20,000 nucleotides of DNA, from IMG/VR virus record IMGVR_UViG_3300021364_000011. The stretch is one strand, 5' to 3'. Below are positions 10,823 through 19,020 of this stretch, piece after piece. Numbering within the stretch: position 1 is the first letter of the stretch; the number at the start of each line of letters is the position of its first letter. The translations under genes and the position numbers were made by a program. This DNA is from an uncultured virus (IMG/VR IMGVR_UViG_3300021364_000011) (Duplodnaviria > Heunggongvirae > Uroviricota > Caudoviricetes). The notes beneath the pieces are model-generated. The model worked only from the letters and a program-made list of their open reading frames with translations, searched no databases and was not told the origin of the DNA.

Positions 10823-11521
10823 CTATGTAGAAAGTTTATGTATAAGTTTTCCGTTATTATCTACTTCAAAACACAATTCATCAGGGTGAAAACCTTTAGG
10901 GTCACCACCTACGGGGACTTGTTTGGTTAAATACCGAGTAGACATATTAAATGATATACTATATCTATCTTTATCAGTTTGGTTAGGTTCTACCATATGC
11001 ATTAATGCACTTGGAAAAAGAAATAAGTGACCAGTTCTAGGTGCAAGTCTAAAGGTTTGACTTTCTCTTGGTGAATGGGGAAAATCTGAAACTACCTTTG
11101 GGTCTTTATCGAGTGCAACAAAGTTCCCTTCATCTCCTTCTGAATGGACATAGAATACACCACTATACCAACAACCATTATGTAAATGTGGAGCATTCCA
11201 TGCACCTTTATCATTTATGTTTGCCCATGAATTTGAAATGTTTAACTGAACTTGACTAGAACTATGTCCAGTATAATTAAGTAATTCTGTATTAAACTTA
11301 TGATTGATAATTCTCAATAATTTAGTAAAGATAGGACTTGACTCACACCCGTCATTTGATTGCCAACCAGTGTATTGGTTGGATATTCTTCTTCCTACTG
11401 GGTCTGTCTTTCTCATAGAGTCTATTTCATTTTTAAGTAAATCAATATAGTCTTGTTCTAGTTGACCAGTCTCTAATAAGTTGTCTTCGATACAGACATA
11501 TGGAAATAATAATCTAATCAT
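10823..11521 (-). CDS. 2OG-Fe(II) oxygenase (TIGR02466-like family)
   Basis: WANIN..GAWNAPHLH (HxH), SGVFYV, LFLFPSALMHMVEPN, RYSISFN: double-stranded beta-helix metal and 2OG-binding motifs. Confidence 0.88.
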   Translation of the reverse strand: MIRLLFPYVCIEDNLLETGQLEQDYIDLLKNEIDSMRKTDPVGRRISNQYTGWQSNDGCESSPIFTKLLRIINHKFNTELLNYTGHSSSQVQLNISNSWANINDKGAWNAPHLHNGCWYSGVFYVHSEGDEGNFVALDKDPKVVSDFPHSPRESQTFRLAPRTGHLFLFPSALMHMVEPNQTDKDRYSISFNMSTRYLTKQVPVGGDPKGFHPDELCFEVDNNGKLIHKLST

Positions 11522-12425
11522 TATCTAAATCTAACTCTAATTGTTTTTCATAACCTGACATCACATCTGCAGCGTCATCAACAGCACTATGCATAGGACA
11601 TTCAGGTGGTGGATTTCCTTCATTAAAATTTTTACCCTTTTGTTTGTGCATTTTACCCATTCTATAACCACCTAGTTTGTCATCTTTATCCCTAGCTGTT
11701 TGAGAGGTATCTACTTGTCTATTAAATTCGTCCATACTTTTATAACCTGAATTATTTGTAATATGACTTCTATTGTCTAACCAAGATTGGTGTTCATATG
11801 TTATATAGGTTGCCTGCCATTCCTCTCTTTTAAATGGTATGACTTGAACTAGAGGAGTTCCTTTTGGTATAACGAAGGAATGATTTACACGTGGATAAAA
11901 GATAATTTGTGCATTATCGTAATTTGTATTAAAGGTATCTGTATCTATTACACCTTGCCATGTTGCAAAATATTTGTTTTGAAATAAAAATGGGTCTAAG
12001 TAAAACGTTGAATAACCAGGCGGTGTTTTTATGTTCCATGGATTTCTCATTTTAAATGCACCCCTAACTGGTGCATCTTCATCATGTAAATATTGAAATG
12101 CATATCCCATTTGTGCAGAAGGGTGTGTAGGTGAAGGCATTTCTGTTCCTCCGTCAAACTCATGTGTTGCAACCCATTCATCATCTGTATCACCATCAAG
12201 TCTACCATTCTTCACAATAATATCTCTATTAGATAATAGATACCAACCACTCTTCAACCAATCGTCCATAGCAGGACATGAACGTATTGTTGCTTGTTTA
12301 ATTCCACGATTATACTCACGGAATTTCATTTTATTCCACCATTCAGGTTTTATAGATTTTGCAAGAACTGGTTTAGAGTCCTTGAGTGTATCTTCATTAA
12401 ATGTGCTAAATTCTATTGTGGGCAT
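11514..12425 (-). CDS. DUF6065-like protein (often near phage 2OG oxygenases)
   Basis: Motifs PEWW, TIRSCPAMDDWLKSGW, NPWNIKTPPGYS, GVIDTD, IPKGTPLVQVIPFKRE; recognised from memory of the family. Confidence 0.65.
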   Translation of the reverse strand: MPTIEFSTFNEDTLKDSKPVLAKSIKPEWWNKMKFREYNRGIKQATIRSCPAMDDWLKSGWYLLSNRDIIVKNGRLDGDTDDEWVATHEFDGGTEMPSPTHPSAQMGYAFQYLHDEDAPVRGAFKMRNPWNIKTPPGYSTFYLDPFLFQNKYFATWQGVIDTDTFNTNYDNAQIIFYPRVNHSFVIPKGTPLVQVIPFKREEWQATYITYEHQSWLDNRSHITNNSGYKSMDEFNRQVDTSQTARDKDDKLGGYRMGKMHKQKGKNFNEGNPPPECPMHSAVDDAADVMSGYEKQLELDLDND

Positions 12426-13150
12426 TGTCTAAACCAATAATTGTCTTCTACTAATCTAATTTCGTCACCTCGTATTACGATTGACTTCCTATCTATATAT
12501 CGTGCTTCTTCAGTGGGTGCGTCGGCACCATGTGGTATTCTTCCGTCAAAAACCACTAATCTATTTGGTTTGAAAGGAATCTCTGCAATTTGGTGATTCT
12601 TTATATGATTTTCTCTACCATGTAAACCTTGTTGCATTTCGTCATAGATTCTCAAAGGGCCTCCCCAATGTTCTGACCATATAGTATTTGTATAATATAA
12701 AAAAGATAAATTCCATTCGTCTTCTTGCATACAATCTGCATGAGTTGTTCCATGTAAACCTTGTGTTTGTGAATTTAATCCCATGTATTGAAACCTTACC
12801 CATTCAAAACCAAAATCAGTTTGTAGTTTTCTATCTAACCATTTTGCACAACACTTAGTGTCTAGATATAGATTAATTTCGGGGTCTGTATCGGGATAAT
12901 TTCCTACGTCTATCAAACTCGAATTGGTTCCCTTCATCATAGTTGCACCCCAAAATTGGTGATGAGGTAAACCTGTAGGACTATCTCCAGTGACTTGGTT
13001 ATTTTTTGACCAAATATTATTAACACTAACTGCCCTGTTAACCCAATGGTGTAATTGCACAGGCAACCAATCATCAATAATATGAATATCTTTTAGTGGG
13101 AATCCTACGTCTTTTAGTTTAAAGGACTCATTATGATAAATGAGTTCCAT
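12413..13150 (-). CDS. 2OG-Fe(II) oxygenase, prolyl-4-hydroxylase-like
   Basis: HAD (HxD), LSFLYY.N..W...WGG.L, FKPNRLVVFDGRIPH, RKS (2OG-binding Arg). Confidence 0.88.
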   Translation of the reverse strand: MELIYHNESFKLKDVGFPLKDIHIIDDWLPVQLHHWVNRAVSVNNIWSKNNQVTGDSPTGLPHHQFWGATMMKGTNSSLIDVGNYPDTDPEINLYLDTKCCAKWLDRKLQTDFGFEWVRFQYMGLNSQTQGLHGTTHADCMQEDEWNLSFLYYTNTIWSEHWGGPLRIYDEMQQGLHGRENHIKNHQIAEIPFKPNRLVVFDGRIPHGADAPTEEARYIDRKSIVIRGDEIRLVEDNYWFRQCPQ

Positions 13151-13153
13151 ACA

Positions 13154-13717
13154 TTACCTAGTTGACCTAGAGTCGGGAGTGACTAAAGGGTCGGGAATTG
13201 CACCAGCATATTGTTCAAAACTCTTTAAAGTATCTTCTCTTGTTTGTTGAATTTCTGCAACCACATTTTCAAAACAAAACCATATGTTATCAAAATATTC
13301 TAATGCTCTTCTTGCATCAGAACGTCTAGGGTGATTTGACCCTTCTCTTCCAGCTACATTTGCATATAATAAATCATACATTCCATACAATTCAGAACAT
13401 CGTGTTTGATAATCTAACACAAGTTGTTCCAATTGATTAATATATTGTTGATTTAAATTATATCCCAAAGGTGGTTCAGAATTTTTGATATATGTTTCAA
13501 TACTAAGTCTGTCTTCTTCTGACAATGTAGTATGTTCTTGTTCGTCAAATTGTTTTCCGTCTTCCCATTTTAAAATCTTAACTTCAACATCGTCATAAAC
13601 TAACACGTCAAAGTCAAAACCCAATTCAGGTCTATCTACGTTTTCAAAATCATATTGTAAACCATTTTCCTTTCGGATTATGAGTTTACTGTCTTCTGTA
13701 TAAATTAATGCGTTCAT
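13154..13717 (-). CDS. Hypothetical protein, possibly tail-fibre assembly chaperone
   Basis: 187-aa acidic protein with RBS-like GAGG upstream. The C-terminal half (YG.YDL..A...HP...DARRALEYFDNIW...VAEI...IP) resembles helical proteins encoded after phage tail-fibre genes. Confidence 0.45.
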   Translation of the reverse strand: MNALIYTEDSKLIIRKENGLQYDFENVDRPELGFDFDVLVYDDVEVKILKWEDGKQFDEQEHTTLSEEDRLSIETYIKNSEPPLGYNLNQQYINQLEQLVLDYQTRCSELYGMYDLLYANVAGREGSNHPRRSDARRALEYFDNIWFCFENVVAEIQQTREDTLKSFEQYAGAIPDPLVTPDSRSTR

Positions 13718-13747
13718 ACTTTATATTATACCTCAATGTTATAAAAA

Positions 13748-15301
13748 TTACAAGTAGGTTTTTGCCTTCACCCAAATATCTAAATTATTTATGTTGGAAT
13801 AATCCATACCTTTTACCCAAGGGCCTCCCCTAGTGTAGTGTATTCCAGTGTAATCCCACTTCTCATCAGGATTATCATAACCTTCAGTAAAGATATACTT
13901 TTCAGGTATTGGACTTATCTTATCAGTCCACTCAAATTGATGTAATTGAGCTCCCGTCCAAGTGTTCACTACTTCAGGTGTTAACTTCTTACAGTCTTCA
14001 TGTCCATTATTGAATATCATTAATGATGACCATAACTTACATGGATAATCTATATTTACTTGTCCGTCAAATTTAGTTTCGTCATGTTTGATTTGTGGAT
14101 ACTTGATACATGCAACTGCATCGTCCATATTCAGATAATAGAACAATGATAGAATAGATTTTCTCCATATGAAGTCATTATCAATAAAGATACTAAACCC
14201 TTCATAGTTTTCTAAGTAGGGGATTAAAAATCTACTGTAGGTGAATTCAGTATTTTGATTTGCATATGGTCTATTATAATCGGGAAGTTTTGCAATGTCA
14301 AGGAATTTGATTTCGGGTTCCCAATGACACTCTTTCATAAGTTGACCACGGCTAGGTTGTAGTGTTTTTAGAATTGTTTTCTTATTTACTTCGTGTAAGT
14401 CACCATGGTTTGAATCATAACCTATGTAAATGTTTAAAGGTTTTCCTTTTGATTGTAAATGAACTCTCTTATTGAAATCATAAACTTCTTGTCGAAAATT
14501 TAAATCCATTAAATCATGTTGATATTCTATAACTCCATTAACGAAAGTTATGGACGTATTTTTGTGTTTTGAATTTCTCTCGTTTAACTTTTTAGTCCAA
14601 TATTCCAGTGCTTCGTCACACGTTAAGGGTTCTGTATCTAATACGTCCCAAGGGTCTGTTGCAAAAATTTCAAAAGTAGGGTCTTCTAATTCTTCGTATA
14701 CTTTTGACCTTATAGAGCCTGGGTGAATTCTAAAACCAAATCTATCGTCAATTTTAAATGTTGTTCCTTGAATTGGGTGTCTCAAACCTTCTTCTTGTAT
14801 ACTTTGAATTAACCAATGTGCTTTTGCACTATGATAATACATTGAATTTAGAGTGGTTTCAGTCTGAGGTGTGATTTCTGTATTAGGTTCAAACTCTACA
14901 TAATCTTTGATTTGTGCATACTCAGGTTCTCCGTCAACTATCCTTGCACAATCCATTTGACCTGTAATTTTATTTGGTCTTTCTTTACAAGTCCATACGT
15001 GTGGTAAGAATTTTTGATAATGAACTGATTCGTTTGCGGCACCAAAGAAGGGAACAAATTTCTTCTGTTTACGAAGTTCTAAAATATCACCCCATTTAAT
15101 TACTTTAGTAGGTGGTGCAATATTTTCAAACACCCATTTAAAATTTTTATATGCGTCTGACTCTTTATCAACGTCACTTATATCGTCTATAGTTCCTAAA
15201 TGATATGCACCTAGGCTATACCAATCAGCACTACTTAAAGTTTTATAGTCTATAGGTTGAATAGTTGAACGGACTTCTTCTAAGGTTTTCAGTTTTTTCA
15301 T
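13748..15301 (-). CDS. Glycosyltransferase (GT-A fold, C-terminal) fused to an N-terminal ParB/Srx-like region
   Basis: C-terminal half has IYIGYD, TEFTYSRFLIPYL, FIDNDF (DxD), YPCKLWSSLMIFN, LHQFEW, HYTRGGPW. N-terminal half has LIQSIQEEGLRHPI...IHPGSIR, which resembles the ParB-N motif. Confidence 0.8.
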   Translation of the reverse strand: MKKLKTLEEVRSTIQPIDYKTLSSADWYSLGAYHLGTIDDISDVDKESDAYKNFKWVFENIAPPTKVIKWGDILELRKQKKFVPFFGAANESVHYQKFLPHVWTCKERPNKITGQMDCARIVDGEPEYAQIKDYVEFEPNTEITPQTETTLNSMYYHSAKAHWLIQSIQEEGLRHPIQGTTFKIDDRFGFRIHPGSIRSKVYEELEDPTFEIFATDPWDVLDTEPLTCDEALEYWTKKLNERNSKHKNTSITFVNGVIEYQHDLMDLNFRQEVYDFNKRVHLQSKGKPLNIYIGYDSNHGDLHEVNKKTILKTLQPSRGQLMKECHWEPEIKFLDIAKLPDYNRPYANQNTEFTYSRFLIPYLENYEGFSIFIDNDFIWRKSILSLFYYLNMDDAVACIKYPQIKHDETKFDGQVNIDYPCKLWSSLMIFNNGHEDCKKLTPEVVNTWTGAQLHQFEWTDKISPIPEKYIFTEGYDNPDEKWDYTGIHYTRGGPWVKGMDYSNINNLDIWVKAKTYL

Positions 15302-15307
15302 AATATA

Positions 15308-15315
15308 TATTTAGG
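15308..15315 (-). promoter_or_regulatory. Possible late promoter variant CCTAAATA, 6 nt before the GT start
   Basis: Minus strand CCTAAATA-TATATT-ATG; no Shine-Dalgarno in between. Confidence 0.45.
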
Positions 15316-15341
15316 GACGTTCTAATAAGGTCTAAACCTCA

Positions 15342-16550
15342 TTAATATTCACCAACATTACCGCCGGGATCGAAGATTTGTTTCGCCATGTTATGTGCAA
15401 CAACTCCGTCTGTATAGAAATTACCTATTTCTAATATATGGTATACTTCTTTTTCTTCACCAGTATCAATAATATCTTTTAGAACTGCAGAACCCCAAAC
15501 TGATTGAAGTTTATCACCAACTTTTAGATTGACTTCATTTAATTCTTCACCATACATTTGTTCAGTATTTTCAAACTGAGGGTGAGATTCTTTCCAATAT
15601 TCATTATCTACAACACCCCATGTTCCGTCTACTAGTTTGAATGGGTGGTCTTTTGTTGTTCCTAATTCTGCAACTGTATCTCCGTTTTCATTTGCAATAA
15701 CGAGGTTAACAACTTTAGTAGGTCTTGGTGACATAAGTTTTTCAACTTCTTTAACAATTTGACCTTCCTCACTCCAAACTTTAATTTGGTCACCCAATAC
15801 GATTGACTCAATTGGTTTTGTTGTTCCGTCATGCATAAGAATAGGTGTCCCAGCAACGAAACAACCTCCACCACCACCACTGATAAAGTAGTAAGACACT
15901 GCAGTCCTAGCGTTATATGTAAATGGATTCCTTCCACTAACAGGTTGTCTAGCATTAGCAATGTAAGGCACACGATATGTGAAAGGTGACCTAAATGCTA
16001 CTGGTTGTCTAGCATTAGCAATATAAGGCACACGATATGTGAAAGGTGACCTAAATGCTACTGGTTGTTGAATATTCGCAGGATACCTTGCGTCATAAGT
16101 GAATGGGTTTTGTGCATTACTTGGTGACTGAGCATTCGCAGGATACCTTGCGTCATAAGTGAATGGGTTTTGTGCATTTCTAATATTAGGTTGTTGTCCA
16201 TTTACTGGATTCTGATACGTAAATGGTGTTTGTCTATTTCTAATATTAGGTTCTTGTGCATTTACTGGATTTCTATATGTAAATGGTGACCTATGTTGAT
16301 ACGTAGAAGGTTGTCTTGCATCTGCAATATAAGGTTGTTGACCATTTGCAATATATGGTGTTTGACTGTTTGCAATATAAGGATAAGGAACTTGTGTAAG
16401 TTCTTGACCCGAAGCATTATTCCACCCTGAAGGTGTTTTGATATAGATTTGGTCAACTGCACTCCAAGTAGAGGAACCAGTTTTAACCCATGCACCTTGG
16501 GTCGCATTCCAACCTGTAGGTGTCTTGACTGATTGATTTCCTGATGCCAT
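15342..16550 (-). CDS. Repeat protein A: Trp-rich N-terminal adaptor, Pro/Tyr/Gln/Asn repeats, Gly5 linker, C-terminal Hint (intein-like) domain
   Basis: aa 1-48 contain three K-T-x-x-(x)-G/T-W units; aa 53-218 contain PFTY/ANARQP repeats; aa 230-387 form the Hint domain. Confidence 0.9.
   Translation of the reverse strand: MASGNQSVKTPTGWNATQGAWVKTGSSTWSAVDQIYIKTPSGWNNASGQELTQVPYPYIANSQTPYIANGQQPYIADARQPSTYQHRSPFTYRNPVNAQEPNIRNRQTPFTYQNPVNGQQPNIRNAQNPFTYDARYPANAQSPSNAQNPFTYDARYPANIQQPVAFRSPFTYRVPYIANARQPVAFRSPFTYRVPYIANARQPVSGRNPFTYNARTAVSYYFISGGGGGCFVAGTPILMHDGTTKPIESIVLGDQIKVWSEEGQIVKEVEKLMSPRPTKVVNLVIANENGDTVAELGTTKDHPFKLVDGTWGVVDNEYWKESHPQFENTEQMYGEELNEVNLKVGDKLQSVWGSAVLKDIIDTGEEKEVYHILEIGNFYTDGVVAHNMAKQIFDPGGNVGEY
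15390..15863 (-). other. Hint (Hedgehog/intein) autoprocessing domain, aa Cys230-Asn387
   Basis: Block A CFVAGTPI, KPIESIVLGD, block B TTKDHPF (TxxH), LKVGD, block F/G VYHI..NFYTDGVVAHN. No homing endonuclease. The +1 residue is Met. Confidence 0.9.
15897..16394 (-). repeat. Coding tandem repeats, mostly 60-bp (20-aa) period with 24-bp (8-aa) units at the 5' end
   Basis: Near-identical 60-bp duplications are visible, e.g. aggcacacgatatgtgaaaggtgacctaaatgctactggttgt twice (about 15966 and 16026) and cgcaggataccttgcgtcataagtgaatgggttttgtgcatt twice (16077 and 16137). Confidence 0.92.
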
Positions 16551-16558
16551 GTCTTATA

Positions 16559-17131
16559 TTATCCTGTTATTGGTGACCCAGGCCACTGTTGTGATACCAC
16601 TCCGTCCCACCTTGCTTCAGGAGTTCTTCCTTGAGTCGCATATGTTGCTGGTTGTCTATTACTATATGTAAATGGTTGTCTATTACTATATGTAAATGGT
16701 GTCTGAGCATTTCTTATATTAGGTTCTTGTGCATTCACTGGATTTTGGTAAGTAAACGGACTTCTATGTTGATACGTAGAAGGTTGTCTAGCATTACTTG
16801 GGTTTCTGTAAGTGAATGGTGACCTATAGTTATATGTAAATGGTTGTCTTGCATTTGCACGATATGGAACCCTATAGGTAAATGGGTTTCTGTAAGTAAA
16901 TGGTTGTCTTGCATTTGCACGATATGGAACTCTATAGGTAAATGGTGACCTATATGTCACTGGTTGTTGAGCATTTGCTGGATACCTTGCACTATATGTA
17001 AAAGGTGACCTATATGTCACGGGTTGTTGAGCACTCGCAGGATACCTTGCACTATACGTAAAGGGACTTTGAAATGAGAAAGGCTGCTGAGCATTTGCAA
17101 TGTAAGGTTGTTGAGTAATTCCGATTGCCAT
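16559..17131 (-). CDS. Repeat protein B: Pro/Tyr/Gln/Arg repeats, paralogue of the repeat region of protein A
   Basis: 190 aa, almost entirely PFTY/ANAxQP repeats. It shares ARQPSTYQHRSPFTY and NPVNAQEPNIRN with protein A and ends in a short Trp-containing tail. Confidence 0.88.
   Translation of the reverse strand: MAIGITQQPYIANAQQPFSFQSPFTYSARYPASAQQPVTYRSPFTYSARYPANAQQPVTYRSPFTYRVPYRANARQPFTYRNPFTYRVPYRANARQPFTYNYRSPFTYRNPSNARQPSTYQHRSPFTYQNPVNAQEPNIRNAQTPFTYSNRQPFTYSNRQPATYATQGRTPEARWDGVVSQQWPGSPITG
16619..17116 (-). repeat. Coding tandem repeats, 60-bp period with 24-bp units at the 3' end
   Basis: gatatggaac..ataggtaaatgg at 16861 and 16921; gataccttgcactata at 16981 and 17041; ggttgtctattactatatgtaaat twice at 16650-16697. 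Confidence 0.92.
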
Positions 17132-17158
17132 TTAGTTATTTCCCGTTTAAAGTTCTCA

Positions 17159-17166
17159 TATTTATA
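17159..17166 (-). promoter_or_regulatory. Late promoter TATAAATA (for repeat proteins B and A)
   Basis: Exact motif in the 17132-17185 intergenic gap. Confidence 0.85.
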
Positions 17167-17185
17167 AAGATTCTAAACCCCTATA

Positions 17186-18760
17186 TTAGGAGTAAAGAAT
17201 CCACAAGTCACCAACTGCACCATCACCTGAAGCAGGAGCTGATGTTGATTGGTAAACGTTTCTAGCAGTTCCACCACTGTTTGTTGCATTGGTGATAGTA
17301 ATTGCACCTGAGGCAACAGTTCCTACAGAAATATTTGGAGTTCCAGTCAATCCTTGTGCATTTACAGCAAGAGTTGCATTTGAAGCTGTTCCTGTTAAAT
17401 CTCCAGTGACATCTCCAGTGACATTACCTGTTAATGCACCTTCGAAAGTTCCAGCAACAAAAGTTTCTGAACCTACAGTCCATTTGTCATTTGTTTCGTC
17501 CCAAAGAAGTGTCTTAGCAGCAGAACCACCTCTAGTGATACTAATACCTGAATCTTCTGTTGGTGAACCTGAAGTGAAATTACTGTTTAATGCAATTACG
17601 TTATCTGCAAGTGAAATAGTTTCTGAGTTTACAGTCGTTGTAGTTCCTGAAACTGTTAAGTCACCTGTAATTGCAACATTGTCATTTAATGTGACATTAC
17701 CTGAACCATTACCACTTAATACTAAGTTAGTGTCTGTTGATTTTGAAGCAATTGCATCAACTACTATATTATTACTGAATGATATTTCGTTTCCAGCACT
17801 GTTAGTAATATTTTGTCCGTCTTCGATTTGAAGAGGGCCTTTAACAGCAATTACACCACTTCCAGTTGGGTCTAGTTCTAAATCACCCGAACCACTTGGT
17901 TGTATTGACATATTTTGGTTATCGTCTGCACTAAAAACAATAGTTCCTGAATCGTCTTCAATAACTTTTTGTCCGTTAACATATAATGAACCTGGCCCGA
18001 TATACACGTCCTTCCACATCTTGGAAGATGAACCTAAGTCGTAAGTGTTATCTGCACTTGGGATTATATTCCCATCAAAACTTCCACCACCTAAGTAAGA
18101 TTTAACACGTGCATCAGTATAATAGAGGTTGCTTGACCCTTCTGAAAGGTCATCTGAGTCGTTATTAGATAAATCTATATCTGTAGCAGTTTCAGCTTTT
18201 GTTGAGGTGTTCTTACTTCTTGATTGAAGTTTACCATTACTATCTCTTTTAAGAACAAGAACGTCTGAACCTGTTCCAAGTTCGATTTCTGCAACTTTAA
18301 GTGATTTTAATGTTCCACTTTCAGAAACTTCAACGTTTCCGTCTGAATCTTTTGAAAGTTCTGTTCCACCTAAGTTAATAGTTGAACCAGCAAGGTATAA
18401 ATCATTCCACCTTGCACTTGAAGAACCTAAGTCCCTTGTTTCGTTTCCATCAGGGATTAAATTACCTCCCCAAGTTGCACTGTAGTCGATAGCAAGTGAA
18501 ACGTCACCTGAAGTTCCACCACCTGATAGACCTGTTCCAGCAGTGACTCCAGTCACATCACCAGTTTGTCCGTCAATTGTTAGTGTGTTTGCACTATCGT
18601 CATATGTTAATGTTATACCTGTTCCCGCAGTCAAGAGGGTATTGACTCTATCGTCAATCGAATCAGTTATGGTAGAACCCGTAAGTCTACCTGAACTGTC
18701 TATAACCTCTGTTGTCCCGACTGTAAGACCATTCTTGATTATAAAGTTCTTAGCTGTCAT
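17186..18760 (-). CDS. Virion fibre/tail-fibre-like structural protein
   Basis: Gly/Ser/Thr/Asp-rich with motifs typical of marine phage fibres: TAGTGLSGGG, IPxxDxTxDLGSSSxxWxDxY twice, DDLSEGSSNLYYT, GDLTVSGTTTTVNS, LLWDETNDKW, C-terminal SAPASGDGAVGDLWI. Confidence 0.8.
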   Translation of the reverse strand: MTAKNFIIKNGLTVGTTEVIDSSGRLTGSTITDSIDDRVNTLLTAGTGITLTYDDSANTLTIDGQTGDVTGVTAGTGLSGGGTSGDVSLAIDYSATWGGNLIPDGNETRDLGSSSARWNDLYLAGSTINLGGTELSKDSDGNVEVSESGTLKSLKVAEIELGTGSDVLVLKRDSNGKLQSRSKNTSTKAETATDIDLSNNDSDDLSEGSSNLYYTDARVKSYLGGGSFDGNIIPSADNTYDLGSSSKMWKDVYIGPGSLYVNGQKVIEDDSGTIVFSADDNQNMSIQPSGSGDLELDPTGSGVIAVKGPLQIEDGQNITNSAGNEISFSNNIVVDAIASKSTDTNLVLSGNGSGNVTLNDNVAITGDLTVSGTTTTVNSETISLADNVIALNSNFTSGSPTEDSGISITRGGSAAKTLLWDETNDKWTVGSETFVAGTFEGALTGNVTGDVTGDLTGTASNATLAVNAQGLTGTPNISVGTVASGAITITNATNSGGTARNVYQSTSAPASGDGAVGDLWILYS

Positions 18761-19020
18761 TAAAATGTTCCCCCATCTACTTGTGGTAATGATAATTCAC
18801 CCGAAGATGAATTATAACTTAAATTTGATTCTCCACTAGCAAGTGATATAGCACCTCTTGCAAGAGAGTTTGAAAAGTATTGATTAGTTGACCCTTCAGC
18901 AAGTGAATCTGTGTCTAATAAAGATAATGCACTTGCAGCGAGTTTACCCGCACTTGATATGACTTCGGTAGTTCCTACAGTCAATCCATATTCAATTACG
19001 AAGGTATTTTGTGTTGCCAT
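18760..19020 (-). CDS. Short paralogue of the fibre protein N-terminus
   Basis: FVIEYGLTVGTTEVISSAGKL matches FIIKNGLTVGTTEVIDSSGRL; DTDSLAEGSTNQYF matches DSDDLSEGSSNLYY; ends in DGGTF; stop/start overlap (TAATG) with the fibre gene. Confidence 0.75.
   Translation of the reverse strand: MATQNTFVIEYGLTVGTTEVISSAGKLAASALSLLDTDSLAEGSTNQYFSNSLARGAISLASGESNLSYNSSSGELSLPQVDGGTF

Follow-up and report, generated by a model that had tools for sequence, protein, structure and literature searches.

Background

Type-A bacterial intein-like (BIL) domains (Amitai 2003; Dassa 2004; Aranko 2013, as cited in PMC4031507) have a cysteine as their first residue, end in His-Asn, and lack a nucleophile at the following (+1) position. 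Excerpts of PMC4031507 indicate that such domains can splice by attack of an amine on a thioester, and that the freed alpha-amine of the C-terminal fragment is the proposed attacker. In BIL2, the attacker is a lysine in the C-extein (the downstream flank), which acts on the N-terminal junction to give an isopeptide bond, as reported in excerpts of PMC8616854. Here we describe a Hint domain of the type-A BIL kind at the C-terminus of a repeat protein (protein A, encoded by gene A) from the tail-fibre gene cluster of an uncultured virus of the Caudoviricetes, IMGVR_UViG_3300021364_000011. The window analysed is a 20,000-nucleotide stretch of this virus with a G+C content of 36%, in which gene A is accompanied by a second repeat gene, gene B (Table 1).

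In the PT-HINT family, a Hint domain is followed by a C-terminal toxin domain that the Hint releases, and T5 pb1 and the endosialidases have self-cleaving C-terminal intramolecular chaperone domains on phage fibres. Hedgehog/Hog proteins (1AT0) have a C-terminal Hint domain whose cysteine holds a glycine-ended N-terminal product as a thioester, which is resolved by an outside nucleophile. According to an excerpt of a review (PMC7765530), Hedgehog proteins have a sterol-recognition region and no terminal Asn cleavage.

Identity of the Hint domain

The C-terminal part of protein A reads ...YYFIS-GGGGG/CFVAGTPILMHDG...TTKDHPF...EVYHILEIGNFYTDGVVAHN/MAKQIFDPGGNVGEY-stop, with slashes at the Hint boundaries. 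The domain begins with CFVAGT, has TTKDHPF as its block B and VYH (H371) in its block F, and ends with VYHILEIGNFYTDGVVAHN; the +1 residue is Met388, and the tail that follows is MAKQIFDPGGNVGEY. Hint and tail together take up the final 173 residues. Cys230 is the sole cysteine of the protein. An initial annotation of this stretch had read the Gly5 run, Cys230, TxxH, His-Asn, the +1 Met, VYH, and the 15-residue tail directly from the sequence, all correctly. It had also taken the domain for an intact Hint of the autoprocessing type without a +1 nucleophile, and the fold, profile, and conserved catalytic set described below support this.

A phmmer search with the Hint domain against 1.84 billion representative sequences detects 588 proteins at E ≤ 1e-3, of which 59 reach E ≤ 1e-10, a match well outside chance expectation. 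Pfam Hint, Intein_splicing, or PT-HINT domains are present in the 24 Hint relatives scanned. For the window protein itself, all six Pfam matches are under the curated cut-offs, the best being Hom_end_hint at 21.4 versus 32.1 bits. For annotation, this means that the domain sits under Pfam's cut-offs, which is why close homologues carry no precomputed Pfam domain.

The catalytic residues are retained across very diverged sequences. In an alignment of 24 diverse Hint relatives (A3), Cys1, the block-B Thr and His, and the terminal His-Asn are kept in at least 90% of rows. In an alignment of 17 A-type proteins (A4), whose Hints are about 30-39% identical, C230, H302, H386, and N387 are invariant, and T299 is nearly so. 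AlphaFold2, when given the 24-sequence alignment, models the domain with a predicted local distance difference test (pLDDT) score of 86.6 and a predicted template-modelling (pTM) score of 0.82; a single-sequence run gives a pLDDT of 31.5.

The best Foldseek match of this predicted fold in the PDB is Tetrahymena thermophila BUBL1 BIL2 (6TMM and 6Y75; E about 4e-10, template-modelling score 0.75-0.80 on target), followed by the Clostridium thermocellum BIL (2LWY; 1e-7), mini-inteins, and Hedgehog (5e-6). A profile of the 24 relatives ranks the solved structures likewise, with BIL2 at 4e-22, 2LWY second at 3e-20, inteins from 3e-18, and Hedgehog, much weaker here as in fold, at 2e-6. By predicted fold and by profile, the closest solved relatives are therefore BILs, namely those of Tetrahymena and C. 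thermocellum.

In sequence and predicted fold, the window domain agrees with type-A BILs at every point compared, and autocatalytic activity is predicted. It shares with them Cys1, TxxH (T299-K-D-H302), a terminal His386-Asn387, and a +1 residue that is not Cys, Ser, or Thr (Met388). It is nearer in fold and sequence to solved BILs than to inteins or Hedgehog, and occupies a variable site of a non-conserved protein. Type-A BILs have about 150 residues and no endonuclease; the 158 residues of the window Hint leave no room for a homing endonuclease. The domain is a real and apparently active intein-like (Hint/BIL) domain. What differs is the setting. Excerpts on type-A BILs place them between sizeable flanks of bacterial secreted proteins, whereas the window host is a phage protein in a tail-fibre cluster, with its Hint at the extreme C-terminus after polyglycine and a C-extein of 4-29 residues that always includes a lysine.

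The likeness to BIL2 extends to the flanks, in that the upstream flank of BIL2 also ends in Gly-Gly before residue 1 (profile alignment), and where BIL2 uses a downstream-flank lysine as nucleophile (PMC8616854, excerpted), the tails in the window family always hold a lysine. However, the upstream flank of protein A ends in GGGGG yet is a Pro/Tyr repeat protein without a match to any ubiquitin-like family, the downstream flank is a short peptide instead of a folded domain, and an isopeptide is hypothetical here.

The remaining classes fit less well. Canonical class-1 inteins have Cys, Ser, or Thr at +1 and lie at a conserved site in a conserved protein, in contrast to Met388 and the variable site of protein A; occupied and empty alleles at one insertion site are the feature in common. 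Instead of a Hedgehog-type sterol-recognition region without Asn cleavage, protein A has 15 residues after a Hint with conserved His-Asn. The window protein has no PT-HINT (PF07591) match at E ≤ 0.1, although distant relatives carry PF07591, and the 4-29 residues that follow the Hint in the A family differ from the C-terminal toxin domain of the PT-HINT layout. The intramolecular chaperones of phage fibres are comparable as removable C-terminal domains, with an unrelated fold and chemistry, and a Pfam scan of the window protein matched no intramolecular-chaperone family.

Ratios of nonsynonymous to synonymous substitution (dN/dS) are 0-0.22 for A residues 1-60 and 0.24-0.45 for the Hint in 10 pairs. 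These values indicate that the Hint is under purifying selection that is weaker than that on the A head.

Occupied and empty alleles of gene A

A search with A residues 1-229 finds 433 relatives of 221-704 residues, the best 120 of which were analysed. Viral contigs were also scanned with an A-type alignment, giving 203 confirmed stretches, the best 80 of which were kept as loci. Among the best 120 of 433 relatives, the A head motif is found in 57, and 51 of these carry a Hint. A different head ('MSEE...') is found in 41, all without a Hint, and 4 of the 22 others have one. The -1 residue is Gly in all 55 Hint-bearing relatives, and their tails, of 4-15 residues, contain lysine without exception (55/55). 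At +1 they have Gly (27), Phe (13), Met (8), Ile (2), Leu (2), Lys, Arg, or Ser (one each), so that Cys, Ser, or Thr occurs there in 1 of 55.

When loci and listed proteins are pooled, a Hint is found on 65 of 111 distinct A-head proteins. Among the 46 counted as Hint-less are P0009, with a truncated Hint fragment, and L124 and L138, whose variant Hints lack His-Asn. In these two variants, the Gly-Cys1 junction and TxxH are kept and the domain ends in ...NGHLVDS; lacking His-Asn, they would not undergo C-terminal cleavage by Asn cyclisation. P0276, which has an 'MSDE...' head and not an A head, shares a ...GVLVDS end alone; the Gly-Cys start pattern was not found in P0276.

The A-B gene pair is universal in the best 80 of 203 stretches, in which 57 distinct pairs occur and three loci without B are cut next to A. 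The Hint is present on A in 15 of these 57 pairs. Hint-less A proteins end with a glycine run that follows an aromatic stretch and precedes a short tail (...YF(Y/F)..GGGG plus 4-18 residues), for example ...VVYFYQSGGG-NFLPTGDGTKNVGAL and ...PFFQPFGGGGG-SPNMNLK. Hint-bearing proteins end in ...GGGG, the Hint, and 4-29 residues, as in the window type (...YYFISGGGGG, Hint, MAKQIFDPGGNVGEY). Because Hint-less proteins have the same glycine run and tail, the Hint lies exactly at that boundary, and the two forms represent occupied and empty versions of one site. The best reading of this pattern is that the Hint travels with the A-B system as an optional extra and is not a component of it.

Tails of the two forms differ in their lysine content. 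All 40 distinct Hint-bearing tails of A-head proteins hold Lys, at 0.14 per residue and with a median tail length of 6. Among Hint-less A-head proteins, 25 end in a glycine run and short tail, giving 20 distinct tails (median length 11), and Lys is present in 7 of these 20 (0.036 Lys per residue).

Gain and loss of the domain

The distribution of the Hint was mapped on a tree of the flanking gene that encodes a 517-residue protein (48 distinct rows; quick IQ-TREE run, LG+G4), in which the Hint was also scored as present in two rows whose variant domain lacks His-Asn. At least six changes in Hint presence are required, likewise when only starred branches are counted, and none of 500 label shuffles requires as few. 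The long branches flagged on this tree (L166, L170, L120) are all outside the window clade.

The window and three Hint-bearing relatives form a clade with a Shimodaira-Hasegawa-like approximate likelihood-ratio test (SH-aLRT) value of 99. It is nested in a larger clade of 13 rows (SH-aLRT 100), the remaining 9 of which are Hint-less. The flanking proteins of the window are 65-75% identical to those of the Hint-less sisters and 49-57% identical to those of the next Hint-bearing lineages, and its Hint is 28-34% identical to the Hints of the latter. In a BLAST ranking of Hints, those of other A orthologues are mixed with those of unrelated proteins, the best scores being 80.9 and 82.4 bits, respectively. 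Together, the Hint divergence, the BLAST ranking, and the flanking-gene tree favour separate acquisition of the Hint in the window clade.

There is a weak, at most suggestive, resemblance between the tail of the window protein and the tails of Hint-less sisters. Its IFDPGG matches VFGPGG of one sister at an identical offset; in shuffles, this best of 8 sister comparisons has p 0.0145 without correction.

Proposed mechanism and alternatives

We put a probability of roughly 0.55 on the reading that the Hint is a self-excising, mobile type-A BIL at the junction of polyglycine and tail, and that the tail is rejoined afterwards. By analogy with characterised family members, Cys230 would undergo an N-to-S acyl shift that places Gly229 on a thioester, and Asn387 would cyclise, cutting Hint and tail apart. 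The Gly229 thioester would then be resolved in cis by a tail amine, which could be the alpha-amine set free on Met388 or the epsilon-amine of Lys390. The 158-residue Hint would be released, and mature A would end as Hint-less orthologues do, with a glycine run and a short tail. Partial hydrolysis to A(1-229) is a likely side product. The initial annotation had called the domain non-splicing, a label that finds no support, given that type-A BILs with these features can splice (PMC4031507, excerpted) and that BIL2 ligates to lysine (PMC8616854, excerpted).

Several points weigh against self-excision with rejoining. In excerpts of PMC4031507, cleavage products of characterised type-A BILs exceed splicing products, and an excerpt of the review PMC7765530 states that type-A BILs cleave and cannot ligate, so the literature is not unanimous. 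The tail is the fastest-changing part of A, with five different tails among proteins that are 86-100% identical elsewhere, as would also fit a discarded peptide. Likeness between occupied and empty tails is marginal, with shuffle p values of 0.08-0.17 for four other members of the window clade. The window clade has GNFY in block F where most relatives have the 'HNF' histidine, and His instead of Asp at VYH371; with so atypical a block F, C-terminal cleavage could be slow. The tree of the flanking gene may not reflect the history of gene A, because recombination could decouple the flank from A. Finally, Hint presence, tails, and B genes were scored by regular expressions on open reading frames (ORFs) taken from the first Met, and not by profile, so a few calls may be wrong.

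It is possible, if on balance doubtful, that the Hint only cleaves. It would then be a self-releasing C-terminal cap whose Gly229 thioester is hydrolysed, with Hint and tail discarded together or separately; mature A would end in free polyglycine, and the cap may keep sticky repeats soluble or unassembled. The dominance of cleavage in characterised type-A BILs and the hypervariable tail fit this outcome. So do the many relatives in which there is little to splice: 22 of 82 tabulated full-length Hint relatives end at most 10 residues after the last Hint, often exactly in 'VHNK', with just the K following His-Asn. The two variants that keep Cys1 and TxxH without His-Asn also suggest that N-terminal cleavage alone can suffice in the family. 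However, very diverged relatives retain His-Asn and one or more residues after it, which N-terminal cleavage alone would not require, lysine is present in every distinct Hint-bearing tail, and a tail-less product would differ from Hint-less orthologues, which have a tail after the glycine run. A self-releasing Hint was one of the fallback options of the initial annotation; it comes close to the reading preferred here, in which the tail is probably rejoined.

A more tentative proposal, which we consider rather unlikely, is that the Gly229 thioester is captured by an epsilon-amine. This would come from the tail lysine, giving a branched, isopeptide-linked end, or from a lysine of another virion protein.

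Conjugation in trans to a partner other than protein B is improbable. In this scenario, a lysine of a virion or host protein, or a small molecule, would capture the Gly229 thioester, and the end of A would be fixed or decorated without ATP, as BIL2 does with ubiquitin-like domains. Glycine is the least hindered acyl donor, and it is always the -1 residue (55/55). The nearest solved relative, BIL2, conjugates its N-extein to other substrates, for example Ras (PMC8616854, excerpted). The repeats of A together with B have 0 Lys and 36 Arg in 359 residues (B alone, 0 Lys and 20 Arg), whereas Lys makes up 6.1% and Arg 4.0% on average in the window's other 21 ORFs, which might suggest amine-directed chemistry. 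However, Lys is scarce in other loci as well: their full-length B proteins have 0-3 Lys versus 17-62 Arg with or without a Hint on A. Lysine avoidance was therefore rejected as a sign of such chemistry, as Hint-less pairs avoid lysine equally and the trait is not tied to the Hint. Moreover, Hint-less orthologues manage without a thioester, and a nucleophile in cis, the tail lysine, is always at hand.

It is very unlikely that the Hint escapes processing and remains on A as a folded knob that serves, for instance, in binding or spacing at the end of the fibre. In favour, unrelated globular C-terminal domains occupy the same place in other A-head proteins and in related repeat proteins, and the block-F residues of the window clade are atypical. 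Against this, a mere knob would have no need of Cys1, TxxH, and His-Asn, which persist in sequences that have diverged by about 65-70%, and Gly at -1 is invariant.

Protein B and the proposed covalent hairpin

The initial annotation had proposed that the N-terminal alpha-amine of B attacks the Gly229 thioester, joining A and B in a covalent hairpin with a Gly5 turn. In favour, gene B always lies next to gene A, the window's B lacks lysine, which leaves its N-terminus as the sole primary amine, and excerpts of PMC4031507 and PMC8616854 provide precedent for amine attack on a BIL thioester. The absence of lysine from B, found also in Hint-less pairs, is uninformative about the Hint. The hairpin presupposes that the Hint is part of the A-B system, whereas 42 of the 57 distinct pairs have none, and where the Hint is present it lies at the boundary of glycine run and tail. 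B starts with Met-Pro in 9 of 15 Hint-bearing rows. Methionine aminopeptidase is expected to remove the N-terminal Met, and the N-terminus would therefore be a secondary amine.

The anti-parallel register on which the hairpin was drawn is without sequence support: the mirror register (sum 226) gives 20% identity, under that of sums 252, 232, and 272. Shared 6-mers and identity between A and B instead peak at parallel offsets 106 and 126 (50-53% over 123 and 103 positions, respectively). A and B look like parallel paralogues, and their sequence identity does not bear on anti-parallel packing. A genetically fused A-B hairpin was also looked for, and none of the 111 A-head proteins has a B-type end; fusions longer than 704 residues were sought in the 80 loci only. 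One candidate fusion, P0250, has a B-type end but lacks an A head, which makes it a long protein of the B type. Ligation of A to B in trans is thus unneeded and unsupported, and we regard it as extremely unlikely.

Similar modules in other proteins

A second, unrelated set of viral proteins has a comparable end, in which a G5-G7 run leads into a Hint (CFTG...CVHN) and then a short tail that has Lys near its end in the sequences read. The set (loci L018-L020 and L017; proteins P0049, P0059, P0063, P0079, and P0141) consists of proteins of about 320 residues and an ORF of at least 1833 residues that runs off its locus. A scan of viral contigs with P0079 alone gave no loci; an alignment of five relatives did retrieve them. 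Loci L025 and L026 encode glycine-rich, repeat-rich proteins of 1078 and 1152 residues that contain BIL-like Hints with Ala at +1; these long proteins look like tape-measure proteins.

Many non-phage Hint relatives (P0018, P0023, P0025, P0026, and others) consist of head-to-tail arrays of 2-7 Hints, with junctions of the form ...VHNK/CF.... We know of no described function for such tandem arrays. Among Hint-less repeat relatives, P0191, P0203, P0204, P0207, P0212, P0227, and P0240 have a globular C-terminal domain followed by a glycine run and 2-3 residues, with ends such as ...GGSGGGGGPFV and ...AKGGGAPL.

Genomic context

The window is the structural module of a marine T4-like myovirus, as judged for the module by PHROG matches. 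These include the head maturation protease, portal, tail tube, sheath, and both terminase subunits, and also a sheath stabiliser, head-closure (Hc2) and head-tail adaptor (Ad2) proteins, and 2-oxoglutarate-Fe(II) (2OG-Fe(II)) oxygenases. The portal is 54-57% identical to portals of Methylophilales, Pelagibacter, and cyanobacterial myophages. On the minus strand, the order is a 524-residue fibre-like protein, B, A, the 517-residue protein (phrog_28018), a 187-residue protein, and oxygenases (Table 1). A orthologues adjoin a fibre-like gene in the 80 loci, and we infer from position in the fibre gene cluster alone that protein A is a virion component. The gene order is fibre, A, B in most lineages and fibre, B, A in the window lineage and its Hint-less sisters. 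Within the A head, K9, K23, and K38 are invariant in the 17 aligned A-type proteins.

Table 1. Coordinates of gene A, its parts, and neighbouring features in the window
Feature	Position	Strand	Remarks
Fibre-like protein, 524 residues	17186-18760	-	Weak tail-fibre and tail-spike PHROG matches
Gene B, 190 residues, repeat protein paralogous to A	16559..17131	-	Partner gene in all relatives; context, not a demonstrated Hint substrate
Gene A precursor, 402 residues: head, Pro/Tyr repeats, Gly5, Hint, tail	15342..16550	-	ORF list and translation
A head, residues 1-55, two KTPxGWN motifs	16386..16550	-	Most conserved part of A (alignments)
A repeat region, residues 56-224, PYIAN and ~20-residue PFTY units	15879..16385	-	0 Lys, 16 Arg
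Gly5 linker, G225-G229	15864..15878	-	-1 residue Gly229 is the predicted acyl donor
Hint domain of the type-A BIL kind, residues 230-387 (158 residues)	15390..15863	-	Cys230, T299xxH302, VYH371, His386-Asn387
Cys230 codon	15861-15863	-	
T299..H302	15645-15656	-	
H386-N387	15390-15395	-	
C-terminal tail (downstream flank, C-extein), M388-Y402, 15 residues	15345..15389	-	Holds Lys390; hypervariable among close relatives, Lys always kept
Stop codon of gene A	15342-15344	-	ORF list
Cassette after A/B	10823-15301	-	~500-residue protein, ~185-residue protein, 2OG-Fe(II) oxygenases
Overlapping ORFs of 40-100 residues	15662-15973, 16262-16507, 16567-16920	-	Other frames or strand of A and B
Overlapping ORF of 40-100 residues	16293-16822	+	Other frames or strand of A and B

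The cassette that follows A and B is conserved in nearly all loci. Its ~500-residue protein (phrog_28018) has a weak DUF3748 match, and its oxygenases are of the prolyl-hydroxylase type (PF13640). They are encoded beside the Pro-rich repeats of A and B, and modification of those repeats may be a candidate role. The short ORFs that overlap A and B are most likely by-products of repetitive, codon-biased sequence.

In the records available, cultured phages gave no match to positions 13000-19000 by megablast or to protein A by tblastn, and tblastn with the Hint alone and with P0079 matched only true inteins of cultured phages (in terminases, helicases, and polymerases). One contig (C79; loci L002, L003, L005, and L007) of a 4-Mb, 110-contig bacterial assembly (G001) has an 88%-identical copy of gene A with a B-like neighbour. 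This contig could be a co-assembled phage or a prophage-like element.

Conclusions

The chemistry and the domain class described here are already known, and the setting was not found in the literature searched. In those sources, nothing was found on a Hint or BIL domain that ends a phage fibre-type protein, and the papers that came closest deal with inteins of terminases or with unrelated subjects. Predicted-structure libraries list many uncharacterised 'Hint domain containing' phage proteins. What appears to be new is an end-module of glycine run, Hint, and short lysine-containing tail in phage fibre clusters, with natural empty and occupied alleles.

The mature form of A is probably about 160-175 residues shorter than its gene suggests. 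More broadly, the natural role of BILs is unclear, and the literature searched describes them in secreted proteins of bacteria and at a ubiquitin-like locus of a ciliate. In the present case, phage proteins of tail-fibre clusters repeatedly end in a BIL-type module, which is present in some and absent from others of otherwise collinear genomes. These natural occupied and empty alleles provide a clean test bed for whether such a domain splices, cleaves, or ligates to lysine. If capture by an epsilon-amine were true, marine phages would modify or cross-link a fibre end by BIL chemistry that requires neither ATP nor enzyme. This would be a viral counterpart of the ciliate BUBL system and a new post-translational chemistry for virions.

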